Source: Octopus vulgaris
Taxonomy: Eukaryota
Assembly: GCA_951406725.2 (NCBI GenBank)
Contig: OX597816.1
Span: 58,900,001 to 58,964,000 of the forward strand
DNA: 64,000 nt
Direction: 5' to 3'
Each line of letters opens with the position of its first letter. Position 1 is the stretch's first letter. The position numbers and the translations under genes were made by a program. Below, in pieces: positions 13,455 to 55,754 of this stretch. Under the pieces are notes generated by a model that saw nothing but the letters and a program-made list of their open reading frames with translations, had not been told where the DNA came from and searched no databases.

Positions 13455-13760
13455 CACTGCGTCGATTACAAACGATGAGGGTTCCAGTTGATCCGATCAA
13501 CGGAACAACAGTAACATGAAAGTGGCTGAGTACTCCGCAAGAAGGTTTCCTTTTGACGTAGTTCTGGAGGAGATCCAGCGTGATAAAGAACGTGACAAGG
13601 CTGGCCCTTTCAATTACTGGTACTACGTATGAACAAGATGAATCGACCTGGGGGAGCAGGACATAAAATGTCCGGCTCGAGGAGACAAGAGGCCGCAAGG
13701 AATTGAACTCATGATCTTGCGATCGTGAACCGAATACCCCTAACCACTAAGCCACGCGTC
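13455..13760 (-). mobile_element. Degraded SINE related to S3
   Basis: tRNA-like head GCGTGGCTTAGTGGTTAGGG on the minus strand; tail similar to 12840-13000. Confidence 0.65.
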
Positions 13761-36510: not shown

Positions 36511-37419
36511 AACTTGTCTGGTTACCGTTTAATACCACCTCGTATATTTCTATTATATGCAGCAGAAGCTGTGTTAGATTAAAAATCCATTTGTGTATCA
36601 TACTGAATGTAAATTCTTCGCAAAAAGTAAATTTATTAGGGTGGTCGTTCGGAGATAATAACTTTTATGGACGTGCTATGTTTAAGACTACAATCATTAT
36701 CAGAGGCAGACGAAAATGGTCTTTGCCGCGCTTAGAACGAATACTGCACTAAATTTGCTTTTTGTAATGTACCTGCAATAAATATTATGCACAAGTGACT
36801 ATAATAATATATGTGTTCGCTTGCCATGGGCCTGCAACTGTGATGGAGTACCAATGTGAACTAAAGCGTATATGAGTATCTAAGCATATCGGACTACAGC
36901 TTTCTATGTCTGACTACAACTGGTTTCTTCCAGAGAGAGAGAGGAGGGGAGGGGGAGAGAGAAAGAGGAGACAGAGACAGAGAGAAGGGGGAAGGAAAAG
37001 ACAAAGAGAGAATCGACCGGTACTTTAATTATCGACCCCGAGACAGTTAACATCTCGACAGAATTTGAACTCAAACTACAGAGAGCCCGAATGAATATCG
37101 CAAGGAATCCTCTCTGACTCCCCCCCCCCCAAACACATGCACGTACGCACACACACACGTGTGTGTGTGCGTGTGTGTGATTTTGAATCAAAAGTTTTGC
37201 AATATTTTAGTAACTTGCTATCTCTAACAAAAGTAAGGAAGGTCGAAATCACATGATCTCGTAGTCTCGGCGCTGGAGGTAGCGGCAATTTATCTCCTCG
37301 CAAGTGATATAAGTAAGTGTGTATTTTGCACCAAAAGCCAATATGAGAGTTTCTCTCATGGCAACTACTGCAGTATAGTTTGTTCTGACAGGACATCCAC
37401 GATTAAGTGGGAATAAATA

Positions 37420-37655
37420 TTACCTCACTTATTTGCTCAATTCGTCAACTTGCAACAAAAGCAGCCTAGCATTCAAAGTAGAGACCATCGTGTTGCACCG
37501 TCTAAAGCCACTTTTCTGCCAATTCTTTGATCCCATGCTAATACTAGTTCTTGTCCTTCAAGGTGAAGAACTCCTTTACTGGGGCTTCCATCTCCTCGTG
37601 GTTGATGAAGCGTCGCGAGCGCAGGAAATGAGGCATAGATTGGAGTATGCGTAAG
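37420..37655 (-). pseudogene. mariner transposase C-terminal remnant
   Basis: FLRSRRFINHEEMEAPVKEFF...GIKELAEKW...DGLYFE; same family as 41820-42075. Confidence 0.75.
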
Positions 37656-38055
37656 TTATAATTTGGGAGAGATATTTTTTTGAACTTATAACGTGCATAA
37701 ACAGTGATTAAGCAAGGGTCAACTTTCAGAACCTGTCGTCAAACATGGCGTTTCGAACACAATGTGATGCTCTGCATCTGGTAGAATTATGAGGAAATAA
37801 TTTAATAATAATAATAATAATGAAATTATTGTATACAGTGCTCAGGTGCACCACAACTTGTCAGAAAGTGCATATAAAGTACATGCAGTAATGTAGAAAT
37901 GTCTGGAAAGCGAACAATGTATGAGTCAGATACATGCTTGTGTGTGTATGGAGGGGAGAAAATCAAGTGTTGTGTTGGCGAATCTCAGGAAGCATGGAAG
38001 TTTTGAAGGATGCAGTGCTCCGACAACTAACAACTGATGCCGGCAGTTTTTTCCT

Positions 38056-38266
38056 ACGAGTTCGTTTCGGACAATCGAACTGTCGATGCCAACCTACACT
38101 CCAAACAGCTAAAGCGGATGTATGCCATTTTGCAGCAAAAATATCCGGCACTGGATACCAAAAGAGAGATCTGCTGCATGACAGCGCAGAACCTCATACC
38201 ACTCGAACAACCGTAGTAAACTACAGGAATTTGAGGGAGTCGTAATGAGGCCAAACTCAGTTTACA
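38056..38266 (+). pseudogene. mariner fragment, left half; continues at 41820-42075
   Basis: TVDANLHSKQL..LLHDSAEPHT..., interrupted at the YSPD motif; resumes PDPAPSEYYLFRSM; TTACA on both sides of the insert. Confidence 0.75.
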
Positions 38267-38305
38267 GGCGCAGGAGTGGTTGTGTGGTAAGTAGCTTTGC
38301 TAACC

Positions 38306-40357
38306 TTCGTCTGAGTTAGACGTGTTATTTTGCTGCTCCGGATGCCACGTTGTTTCAACGTGAACTATTGAACATTTGACTCGACTACAGGTAGGCGTTT
38401 TGTATTTTTGGGAGCGAAGTGAAGTTTATTGCTTGCATTTAATGTTTTTTAGCATTAAATATTTTTTTAGCAGATAATAAGGCTCCACTTTGCTCCGGAT
38501 ATAATTTTTCTGCCTGTTGTCGAGTGTAAAGAAAATTGTGTTTTTGAGGCGGCATAGTCCGTCTGCAAAAATTATTTTTGAAATTGTCGTTGTGTTATCC
38601 ACGGGATTTACCAAGGATTATTTTACCAAGGTGTTTCACCAACAGTGTATTTGGCCTGGAATACAATTTTTGGCCGAAAAAGTGAACAAAAAAAAAGAAA
38701 AATTAATTCCTTTGTCTGAATTTGAACTCTCTTTCTCCGTCTATCATTCATTTGTAAAAAAAAAAAAAGAACTTTTTTTGAACTGCCATTTTAATTTTAT
38801 TTCTTCCCTTCTGTTGCTTTTTTCATTCTCCTTTCTGTGTCTAATTTATTTTGTAACATTTTGAACTGTTTTTCTTACGTTATGGCAAGGAATTTCACTG
38901 TGTGGGAATTGACACCTCCCAAAAAGTACTTAAAGGAGCTCGAGGACAGAACCGTGGTGTTGAGGACATATTCGAGGTCGCTCGATACCATAATGGTTTT
39001 CCCAAAAGCCACCATTATGAACGAGCTGGCAGATTATATGCCAGCCGTTAAATATATTCAACGGGGAGCCAAATACGCAACGATTTGGTTGCTGTTTGAC
39101 TCCCCTAAAGCAGCTTGCGATTTCGCGAGTAAGCCCATTGAGGGCGAAGAGATTCTGTTTCTCCCAAGCTATAGGGGGAAAAAATTGATACGATTATGGG
39201 TCTGCGGCCTGTCGCCCGGCTTTGAGCCCGAGTGGGTGGAAGATTCTATCCGACGGGGTCTGAGTGGTGGTAGTGCCAAGATCCTGAACGTGAGAGTGCA
39301 GCCAGCGGCCGATTGGGAAGGGTCAAAGGCTACTTTGACTCTGTGGACTCAGTCGGCCAAGAGTTTGGTTTTGCCGGACTTCTTGAGGATGGCCGGGTCC
39401 AAGTATCCGGTGATACTGGAGGGACGCCCCCCCCCCCAAGTGTCACCTGTGTTCGGAGACCGGCCACATTAAGAACTGCCCCAGGGACCAGAGCAGGATC
39501 CTGGAGAAGTTAATATCAGAGCCTCTCCCTGCCCCACCAATGGAGGGAGAGAAACAAAGTGAGGAAGCGGCAACTTCCTCAACAAAAAGAAAAAGAAAAG
39601 TGGGGAGCAATGGTGACCCACCAAAAGAACCGGAGGCTGCGGAAGAAAAAGAGGACCCGGTGCGTACAACACCGGAACCTCAACCTCCCGAGGCCCAGCG
39701 TAAAAAGAAAAATCAAAAGAGGAACGGGACGCCACCAGCGGACTGTAACACCCAGATGGCGTCTCCCATGTGTCCTCCGGCGATTGTGATGCCGGAGAAA
39801 TTTTATGTAGTCCTCTTCCATAAAGGAGGCACTGTAGAAAACGAAATAGGTAAGATGAGGAAGAGAAACCAATGGGAGGGACTTCGGTCCTGCATGGAGT
39901 ATCCCGAGTGGCCTTCGCAGCTGGCTGCGGAGGTCCTACTCGAAAATGATATGTGCAGGATCGAGAATTCTTTCCCGGAGGATCTCTTGCAAGTCATACC
40001 TGTATGCGGAAGCCTGACGATGGACGATTGCGTCATTAAAGCAAGAGAGTTCATCGGTCGGGTAACGTAAAATTGTAATTGTGTTACATTGTGACAGAGG
40101 TTTATTGCCTCTGAAGAGACTTTTAAAAGTGTAAATTGTAAATTGAAATTTTTGTGAAAATTGTTTGAATTTTTGTAATTTTTGAAATTTTGTAAATTAT
40201 TGAAAAAAAGAACATTGTTTTAGAGAAGCAAAAGTCGGCGGGCGCTTTCTGACTTCTCCCATCACCATCTTCATCAACCACCATCATCATCCATTAATGT
40301 CCTTGTCCAGCCCGTAGCTACTCTGTGTGCTGCCCTAGTGGCAAATTAAATGAAATA
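38306..40357 (+). mobile_element. Element A: near full-length ORF1-only L1/Tx1-like retroelement
   Basis: Flanked by target copies at 38289-38305 and 40358-40373; AGACGTG at 38318; one ORF; ~290-bp 3'UTR ending in AATAAA. Confidence 0.8.
38882..40070 (+). CDS. Gag-like ORF1 (RRM-like folds, CCHC knuckle, unknown C-terminal domain), ~395 aa, one frameshift
   Basis: Track ORFs 38837-39472 and 39540-40070 join by removing one C from the 11-C run at 39427-39437: EGRPPPKCHLCSETGHIKNC. Confidence 0.75.
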
Positions 40358-40373
40358 AAGTAGCTTGCTTACC

Positions 40374-41153
40374 TGAAAGCTGCGGGAGAGGAGAACCCGG
40401 TGCGCACAGCTCCGGAACCTCAGCCTCCCGTGGCCCAGGGCAAGAAGAAAAAGAAAAAAAAGAGAAACGGAGCGTCGCCAGCGGATTGCTACACGCAGAC
40501 GGCGGTTCCCGAGTATCCCGGGTCCTCTCAGGCGGGTGTGCCACCTGAGGGACAATTCGTGGAAGATTTTGTGCTCCTCTTTTCTAAAGGAGAAAAGGTG
40601 GAAAGCACCGTAAGAAAAGTGAGAAAGAAAGGACGTTGGGAGATACTCCGAACCTGTACGGAGAACCCCGAGTGGCCTTCGCAGTTGGCTGCGGAGGTCG
40701 TGAGAAGGGCTGATCTACACGGGATCGTGGGTTCCTTCCCAGCGGACTCCTTCGAGATTATACCTCTGGACACTGACCTGACCAGCGAGTATTGCCTCAA
40801 TGAGGCAAGAGCGATGGTCGGCCGTGTCACATAGGTTGTGTAACATCTTTGTAACATGTGGAAGAGGAGGTTCATTGCCTCCTCTAAAATTTGTAAAATT
40901 TGTAATTGAATGTTAATTTTAACATTTTTGTAACAGGTTGAAGAGAAGGTTCATTGCCTACTCTAAAATTTGTAATTTGTAATCATTGTATTAAATGTAA
41001 TTATTGAACATTGTTTTAGAGAAGCGAGAGTCGGCGGGCGCTTTTTGACTTCTCCCATCACCATCTTCATATACCACCACCATCATCCATTAATGTCCTT
41101 GTCCAGCCCGTAGCTACTCTGTGTGCTGCCCTAGTGGCAAAATTGTTGAAATA
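40374..41153 (+). mobile_element. Element B: 5'-truncated paralogue of element A, ORF ends at 40834
   Basis: Shares PVRT.PEPQPP, PEWPSQLAAEV and GRVT-stop; near-identical last ~140 nt; followed by target copy 41154-41169. Confidence 0.85.
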
Positions 41154-41294
41154 AAGTAGCTTGCTTACCAACCACATGGTTCTGGGTTCAGTCCCACTGC
41201 GTGGCACCTTGGGCAAGTGTCTTCTACTATAGCTTCGGGCCGCCCAAAGCCTTGTGAGTGGATTTGGTAGACGGAAACTGAAAGAAGTCCGTCG

Positions 41295-41325
<31 letters not shown>

Positions 41326-41541
41326 TTGTGTGTTTGTGCTTGTCCACTTAGCATTACTTGACAACCGATGCTGGTGTGTTTACGTCCCCGTCACTTAGCG
41401 GTTCGGCAAAAGGGACCGATAGAATAAGTACAAGGCTTACAAAGAATAAGTCCCAGGGTCGATTTGCTCGAGTAAAGGCGGTGCTCCAGCATGGCCGCAG
41501 TCAAATGACTGAAACAAGTAAAAGAGTAAAAGAGTAAAAGA

Positions 41542-41592
<51 letters not shown>

Positions 41593-42087
41593 TGTGTGTG
41601 TATATGTTTGTGTGTGTGTGTCCCCAACATCGCTTGACAACCGATGCTGGTGTGTTTACGTCCCCGTAACATAGTGGATCGGCAAAAGAGACTGATAGAA
41701 TAAGTACTAGGCTTACAAAGAATAAGTCCTGGGGTCGACTTGCTTGACTAAAGGTGGTGCTCCAGCATGGCCGCAGTCAAAATAACTGAAACAAGTAAAA
41801 GAGTAAAGAGTAAAGAGTTACAATCCGGACCCAGCTCCCTCGGAATATTACTTGTTTCGATCGATGGTTCACTTCCTGCGCTCGCGATGCTTCAGCAACC
41901 AAGATGAGATGGAAGCTTTATTGAAGGAATTCTTCGCCTGAAAGGAGAAAAAACTAGTATCAGCGTGGAATCAAAGAACCGGAAGGAATGTGGTTTTAGA
42001 CGGTACAACACGATGACTTCTACTTTAAATGCTAAGCAGCTTTTGTTGGAACTTAAAGAATAAATCAAATGAGTTCCAAGATATTGC

Positions 42088-55344: not shown

Positions 55345-55708
55345 ATGTCTGTGTGGTAAGTAGCTTGCTTACCAACCACATGGTTCCGGGTTCAGTCCCA
55401 CTGCGTAGTACCTTGAACAAGTGTCTTCTACTATAGCCTCGGGCCGACCAAAGCCTTGTGAGTGGATTTGGTAGACGGAAATTGAAAGAAGCCCGTCATA
55501 TATGTGTGTGTGTATTTGTGTATATGTATTTGTCCCTCCTCCCCCCATCATCGCTTGACAACCGATGCTAATGTGTCTACGCCCCCGCAGCCTAGCGGTT
55601 CATCAAAAATGACAGAAAGAATAAGTACTAGGCTTACAAATAAGTCCTAGGGTCGATTTGGTTGACTTAAAGGCGGTGCTCCAGCAAGGCCGCGGTCAAA
55701 TGACTGAA

Positions 55709-55754
<46 letters not shown>

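Follow-up and report, generated by a model that had tools for sequence, protein, structure and literature searches.

ORF1-only retroelements at a fixed position in a tRNA-derived SINE of Octopus vulgaris, and the young L1/Tx1-type LINE that likely inserts them

The window, i.e., the whole 64,000-nucleotide stretch of Octopus vulgaris DNA analyzed here, holds two retroelements lying one behind the other inside a single SINE, all on the forward (+) strand. The order along the locus is SINE head, site copy, element A, site copy, element B, site copy, SINE body, and both this layout and the coordinates given in the first-pass annotation hold on re-reading of the window. The 5' part of the SINE head (38267-38288) includes an A-box-like stretch (38277-38287); the intact head of this SINE aligns to tRNA genes. 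It is followed by a 17-nt upstream copy of the target site (38289-38305), the variant AAGTAGCTTTGCTAACC, which differs from the two downstream copies by an extra T and by TAACC in place of TTACC, and which was likely carried over from a donor rather than being a faithful duplication. Element A (38306-40357) is a full-length, non-autonomous, ORF1-only retroelement of 2,052 bp, 95-96% identical to its full-length siblings. Its ORF1 (38882-40070) comprises a putative RRM-like region, a CCHC knuckle, a basic linker, and a C-terminal domain, and is frameshifted at a run of C (39427-39437). The tail of A carries the motif AGCTACT (40316-40322), the reverse complement of the target core, and a terminal hairpin TGCC-N5/6-GGCA (40331-40343) that is common to an autonomous LINE (see below). 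A site copy AAGTAGCTTGCTTACC (40358-40373) separates A from B and is the 16-nt duplication flanking the latter. Element B (40374-41153) is a 780-bp, 5'-truncated copy of a second ORF1-only subfamily, 98.2% identical to its full-length sibling L125; it retains the C terminus of the ORF (to 40834), the tail motif (41112-41118), and the hairpin (41127-41139). The original target site, again AAGTAGCTTGCTTACC, occupies 41154-41169, and the rest of the SINE (41170-41543) has a B-box-like stretch (41185-41195), the body, an internal microsatellite, and a 3' end made of (GTAAAAGA)n.

An empty SINE lies elsewhere in the window (55345-55710, end approximate), with a single site at 55358-55373. It had been cited as an uninterrupted copy with the 16-mer once, which we confirm, adding that this SINE is 5'-eroded. 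The 16-mer has three exact matches in the window (40358, 41154, and 55358) and five with at most three mismatches, where 0.34 are expected and none of 100 shuffles reached five. Two other repeats deserve mention. A decayed fragment of a mariner-like transposase (37925-38245) adjoins the SINE; its Pfam match is weak (Transposase_1, E 0.067), and it is very deep in public contigs. A second family of tRNA-like SINEs is represented by its head, with the sequence GTGGCTTAGTGGTTAGGG, at 13755 on the minus strand.

Since the proteins of A and B are only 52% identical over 151 aa and their DNA is about 70% alike, despite 93% identity over the last 143 nt, they do not result from a local duplication. 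Nearer relatives of each were found on other contigs, in line with the initial proposal of two independent insertions. We give almost no credence to a local tandem duplication, or an assembly artifact, as the origin of the locus. Near-identical 2-kb repeats in some other arrays (C1:223.69 Mb) may be local duplications, but the divergence and the relatives just described are not what such a process would leave at A and B, the same junction occurs 469 times in the genome, and the contigs of four public short-read runs contain both types of element. Over 37300-41700, the contigs of these runs also show joints skipping A and B (38297 to 41165). With some 54,000 empty SINEs in the genome, such joints are to be expected, and none of the pieces connects the unique flank with the SINE body. 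The order in which A and B were inserted is indistinguishable, each being 98% identical to its nearest sibling over the 3' part.

The insertion pattern of A and B is real and genome-wide. The queries used to establish its specificity (tails and the C terminus of ORF2) contain no letters of the site. An exact 32-nt pattern of the passenger tails has 38 matches in the genome and AAGTAG comes next in all of them (AGTAGC in 37, AGTAGT in one), with the SINE resuming in 33 cases and another element following in five. The last 143 nt of A, the query suggested in the first-pass annotation for tabulating 3' flanks, gave 1,400 genome candidates. Forty were scored, and the 30 loci retrieved held 31 tail copies, every one of them directly followed by AAGTAGCT; 22 resume the SINE and nine enter another element. 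Hence, the flanks are not random. The C terminus of ORF2 from the autonomous LINE has 151 matches genome-wide, and the 30 loci retrieved all end at the site. The same was observed for the first 30, in genome order, of the 109 exact matches to the tail pattern of the young LINE. Among 19 older ORF2 copies, 15 have the site, one lies in a SINE from which the site was deleted, and three have lost their 3' ends. These fractions exceed the one used to call a LINE target-specific, i.e., the target in more than 20% of flanks (PMC4494074). The sequence-specific targeting of the SINE head, as originally suggested, is thus borne out by the same site following 38 of 38 tails and 30 of 30 ends in each of the two LINE searches. 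Nor is the 16-mer merely the terminus of the element, since SINE heads precede the elements. This recurrence likely reflects a DNA-nicking enzyme tuned to the site.

The 5' junctions are less uniform. We compiled a set of 34 rows for truncated junctions, including two intact 5' ends, one case without a real junction, and five without a relative on which microhomology could be scored. The upstream duplications of truncated copies range from 0 to 17 nt, often with 1-4 nt of microhomology, and so the fixed 16-bp duplication of the earlier description does not hold. In B, the duplication is 16 nt long and its last 3 nt also match the element's own sequence. Three truncated copies (L192, L220, and L232) have duplications of 16-17 nt with 0-1 nt of microhomology, and the second nick should therefore lie near +16/17. 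A stagger of 13 bp was considered because GGTAAG-N7-CTTACC forms an inverted repeat (z -2.5 as a DNA hairpin), but these three copies rule it out.

Long insertions reveal a different trait. In 50 long single insertions, the 5' and 3' copies of the site are identical in 22 and different in 28, and 17 of the differing 5' copies fall into four recurring variants. The variant upstream of A is among the four and recurs at L064, L067, L172, and L174, each time with a canonical 3' copy. The variant TTTCTCACC has 18 genome-wide occurrences behind GT, and an element comes next in 12 of them, against a base rate of 0.9%. Such recurrence is best explained by donor sequence carried on the RNA, and the element likely brings along part of the 16-mer. 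A general copying of the donor is opposed by two observations: where a long insertion has a canonical 5' copy, the T/A variant fits the local site in 21 of 24 cases, and at L111, L132, and L232 a rare variant of the local site was doubled and flanks the element at both ends. Donor sequence does not usually win, and the 5' junctions are a mixture. We also considered donor sequence extending into the SINE head upstream of the nick and rejected it, as 12 of 14 variants with a GTGCT head are empty SINEs. Two loci have unusual structures. At L183 (6170-6560), a truncated LINE tail stands between duplicated SINE stretches of about 100 nt with common private changes, which would be due either to an unusually long duplication or to template switching. 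On the minus strand of L154, near 1500, AAGTAGCT and then a whole SINE head come after a tail, twice, as if a SINE had inserted at the site.

The head of the target SINE aligns to tRNA genes of the genome, best to the Lys(TTT) type (z 5-7), and stretches resembling an A box and a B box lie on either side of the insertion point, as had been proposed. With this tRNA-like head and 53,949 exact 33-mers, the repeat is a tRNA-derived SINE, even if Rfam has no match for the head and neither Rfam nor ARAGORN calls it a tRNA. OK is the name of an octopus tRNA-Lys SINE family, and Ohshima and Okada are said to have described octopus tRNA-derived SINEs in 1994 (as cited in PMC4758252). The target resembles these, by description only, in its tRNA-Lys-like head and very high copy number. 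The derivation of the head raises the possibility that real tRNA genes are the true target and that the SINE is struck by likeness alone. We regard this as improbable: every flank of the site that we examined is a SINE or another element, and none of 25 distinct tRNA genes, a small set enriched for Lys and Thr, has the site within four edits. Within the head, the site is the part that least resembles a tRNA. The earlier idea that the lineage descends from one targeting tRNA genes thus finds no support in these 25 genes.

What are the consequences for the SINE? The first-pass annotation proposed that insertion inactivates it. For a single copy this stands as probable, since the A and B boxes are split and a filled SINE has probably lost its function as a Pol III unit. 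For the family it does not: exact matches, which give lower bounds, count 469 filled junctions and 53,949 empty sites (33-mer), so that about 0.9% are filled. With so few copies touched, the SINE family is hardly affected. Downstream of young LINE tails, the similarity among SINE bodies is 91.3%, compared with 97.5% among the tails; three of 406 pairs are identical and there is no gradient at the junction. The SINEs therefore existed before the insertions. Filled copies are still somewhat more alike than empty ones met by chance (91% versus 84%), which could result from a longer recognition site, a bias toward young copies, or some copying by 3' read-through.

This excess of likeness, together with the part of the 16-mer that travels with full-length elements, might suggest that the LINE tail and the SINE body (and head) are copied together as a composite unit, the flank being a part of the element and not its target. 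We find this very improbable and consider it largely refuted. Copies truncated at many different 5' points all retain a SINE head directly upstream, and downstream of the tails the SINE bodies are too diverse, as just described, for a unit copied as one. The rare local variants doubled on both sides of an insertion and the other elements that replace the SINE after nine of the 31 tails also argue for a flank that was there first. Hence, we return to the SINE head as a true insertion target.

Which enzyme could act at this site? No ORF for a reverse transcriptase (RT) or an endonuclease was found in A or B. An autonomous element with APE and RT domains, the same target, and a related tail, whose existence had been anticipated, does occur in the genome. 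Its ORF2 is open over 1,140 aa and encodes APE, RT, and zinc finger domains (Pfam Exo_endo_phos PF03372, E 1.4e-11; RVT_1 PF00078, E 9e-29; zf-RVT PF13966, E 1.1e-8), with LINE-1 ORF2p as the nearest solved relative (E 7e-66, versus 8e-22 for R2). The autonomous unit, with ORF1 and ORF2, is about 5.5 kb long, and its family has the signs of target-primed insertion, namely, a fixed 3' end, variable 5' truncation, and a target duplication. By these features, we place it among the non-LTR retrotransposons of the L1/Tx1 group. Its motif LDQxKAFDRV presumably resembles that of Tx1. Two protein searches with the partner returned no named Tx1 reference among their matches, and the search with the whole ORF2 returned only distant, unlabeled ones. 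A relative with 64% identity across the RT region is among the annotated proteins of Argonauta hians and, along with the type of SINE, suggests an octopod host. Another source yielded a large group of RTs (P0032-P0110) at about 50% identity. The family is young and its ORF2 intact, for example, at L042 (4814-8233, minus strand): seven full-length copies are 97.7-99.0% alike, and many of the 151 matches to the C terminus belong to open frames of 1,140-1,150 aa. A relic second copy of the site lies 14 nt into the autonomous 5' UTR at L302.

A and B are not the drivers of the insertions; encoding only ORF1, they are passengers. The full-length passenger unit is about 2 kb long, with one ORF. An intact sibling ORF1 of 395 aa (L058) matches the ORF1 of the autonomous LINE at 27% identity (E 4e-20) over the N-terminal region and the knuckle. 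One CCHC knuckle is visible in the sequence, at a Pfam score below the cut-off (zf-CCHC, E 0.0096), and the Atlas neighbors of this ORF1 are CCHC and ZCCHC3-like RNA-binding clusters (0.88-0.92). A literature search for ZCCHC3 together with Tx1 and ORF1 found no paper. Among 21 pairs of seven passenger ORFs, in which dS between subfamilies reaches about 2, dN/dS is 0.11-0.36 in the N-terminal half and 0.33-0.69 in the C-terminal one. The passenger ORF1 is thus under purifying selection, likely because the passenger RNA needs its own ORF1p in cis, and the passengers are an old lineage rather than fresh deletions. Some ORF1-only subfamilies have swapped halves (L061, L057, and the C4 array L036-L037), with an N terminus like that of one subfamily (dS 0.07) and a C terminus like that of another (dS 0.12).

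Both classes of tails, autonomous and passenger, finish in a TGCC-N-GGCA hairpin followed by GAAATA, without poly-A, and in four of 24 tails one pair of the hairpin is altered on both sides. The mobilization of the passengers by the partner LINE is likely; it is suggested by the common site and the common end of the tails, between elements whose ORF1s are just 27% alike. Taken together, we hold with considerable confidence that A and B are ORF1-only passengers at a fixed base of a tRNA-derived SINE head, likely inserted by the endonuclease and RT of a young autonomous LINE of the L1/Tx1 type.

How could these insertions proceed? The APE endonuclease would nick the bottom strand between GTGTGGT and AAGTAGCTT. 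ORF2p would then bind the conserved tail (hairpin and GAAATA end) of its own RNA or of a passenger's, and reverse transcription would be primed at the nick. The top strand would be cut some 16-17 nt downstream, and truncated cDNAs may join by microhomology, often trimming the overhang. Transcription of full-length RNAs would begin within the donor's 5' copy of the site or upstream of it, so that the end of the cDNA could anneal to the overhang and write a donor variant into the new locus. Each insertion would regenerate the site, allowing later ones to stack head to tail. The SINE may provide an abundant and harmless landing pad.

The tails raise an additional question, namely whether the RNA takes part in the choice of the target. 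Both classes keep a motif of 7-10 nt complementary to the site. The motif (A)AGCUACU(U) might pair with the top strand by the nick, or with the site in RNA reading through at either end of the transcript, and provide part of the specificity usually ascribed to the endonuclease alone. At least 7 nt complementary to the site are present in 32 of 52 tail clusters (200 shuffles averaged 3.6 and never exceeded 8; the same-sense control gave 3 of 52), but the shuffles overstate significance because the tails are related, and at least six of the 52 clusters were picked up falsely by the regex. The motif is preserved in two otherwise unlike classes of tails, at about -80 in the autonomous one and at -42 in passengers; the full AAGCTACTT is present in 29 of 30 young LINE tails, while an unspecific sister lineage, X, lacks the motif (4 nt). 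In the autonomous tail with read-through, the motif-site helix appears in both the MFE and the centroid structure (z -1.86), whereas in A and B it is unstable (z -0.10 and -0.28). Furthermore, site-bound tails without the motif exist (L302 and L116), another sister, Y, has a mere 5-nt complement to its own preferred target, the data show no compensatory change, and the motif could bind a protein instead. We therefore see RNA-assisted targeting as a tentative proposal that is probably wrong. Slightly more doubtful still is the complete picture that could be built on it: an APE-type LINE with a partly RNA-guided choice of target, in which AAGCUACUU would form base pairs with the top strand beside the nick and the site copy from the 5' end of the donor would anneal to prime the second strand, a system that might be redirected via its RNA and that is young, with intact ORF2 and natural passengers carrying 2 kb of cargo. 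For the insertions themselves, we keep to the nicking enzyme tuned to the site.

The two sister lineages are at 52-64% identity with this LINE in the C terminus of ORF2. Lineage X has varied flanks, with one of 24 loci at the SINE site (L303-L326). The end of its tail is related to that of the specific lineage, and a hairpin occupies the place of AAGCTACTT. The young lineage Y has a different preferred target, the repeat GAGTTAGTTCCC, which 16 of 24 loci show (L327-L350), and Rfam has no family for this repeat at gathering score. The tails of Y are 97-99% alike, with clusters on C27 (22.8-26.3 Mb) and C2 (14.65-14.72 Mb), and some of its loci follow one another at intervals of about 13 kb, which recalls a tandem array. 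The presence in one genome of strict (this lineage), other-repeat (Y), and unspecific (X) sisters offers a natural series to study how APE endonucleases gain or switch specificity.

The lineage studied here forms arrays that begin with a SINE head, end with a SINE body, and mix ORF1-only units of about 2 kb with ORF1+ORF2 units of about 5.5 kb, in a single orientation and with the site at each boundary. On C7, 15 inspected junctions span 42 kb of an array that is not closed and in which both X and Y were met. In this region (C7:13456001-13506000; L031-L033, L116, and L302), LINEs and passengers from at least three lineages, some nested, extend over more than 40 kb on the same strand. The region could be a trap locus or a small-RNA cluster. 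Arrays of up to more than 40 kb nested in SINEs matter for annotation, where they will be mis-split.

Several known systems resemble this one. In the available text of PMC4494074, transposon-targeting Tx1 LINEs with SINEU passengers include Tx1L in Tx1D (Xenopus) and Tx1-Mar in Mariner-N4_AMi, and other families insert into LTR elements (Tx1-8_Crp/Tx1-4_AMi) or Harbinger (Tx1-9_AMi). The octopus family is like them, as far as that text describes them, in that an APE-RT LINE favors a site within another transposon, passengers share the target, insertions occur in tandem, and 5' extensions derive from the target. It differs in the target, here a tRNA-derived SINE, and in its precision: essentially all intact copies use one base and one orientation, whereas the same text gives 90% for SINEU-3, 23% for SINEU-1, and 13% for SINEU-2, with two regions. 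The passengers here are protein-coding ORF1-only elements, unlike those described there, and the family is young, with open ORF2s, compared with copies of Tx1-Mar at 85-87% to their consensus. A 2026 annotation of octopus repeats lists 13 recently active L1-Tx1 families, and the word "target" is absent from its main text (PMC13282606).

The closest parallel for the insertion mechanism is R1 of insects, which inserts into 28S rDNA with a 14-bp duplication, forms tandem arrays separated by the duplication, and has target sequence on some transcripts, according to the accessible part of PMC2718515. The two would share a fixed bottom-strand nick, a downstream top-strand cut (14 bp for R1, about 16-17 here), microhomology at truncated 5' ends, and tandem arrays. 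R2, in the part of PMC3774820 available to us, has upstream target sequence on its RNA; compared with R1 and R2, the donor sequence here is downstream of the nick. R1 and R2 also belong to another clade, the nearest solved relative here being LINE-1 ORF2p, and their target is an rDNA array rather than a dispersed SINE.

For the passengers, the comparison is with HAL1 (half-L1), the ORF1-only non-autonomous derivatives of L1 (PMC5753468, as seen in its accessible text). Like them, A and B encode only an ORF1p, homologous to the ORF1 of a LINE on which they would depend, and share with this LINE the 3' end (hairpin and GAAATA). They are not HAL1 proper, of mammalian L1 origin, since a CCHC knuckle is present in their ORF1, which matches the local LINE. 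In contrast to HAL1, they have an independent invertebrate origin, are site-specific, form an old and varied lineage (dS reaching about 2), and have swapped ORF halves.

Our literature search, with subscription papers and Repbase Reports outside its scope, found no published case of a LINE targeting a SINE. Site-specific LINEs, including transposon-targeting ones with passengers, were thus known, and the new feature is the SINE as a target. Intact ORF2 copies and passengers carrying 2 kb, tail motif included, make the system testable in vitro. With the octopus family, SINEs would join the list of targets of site-specific LINEs, reversing the usual parasitism of SINEs on LINEs.
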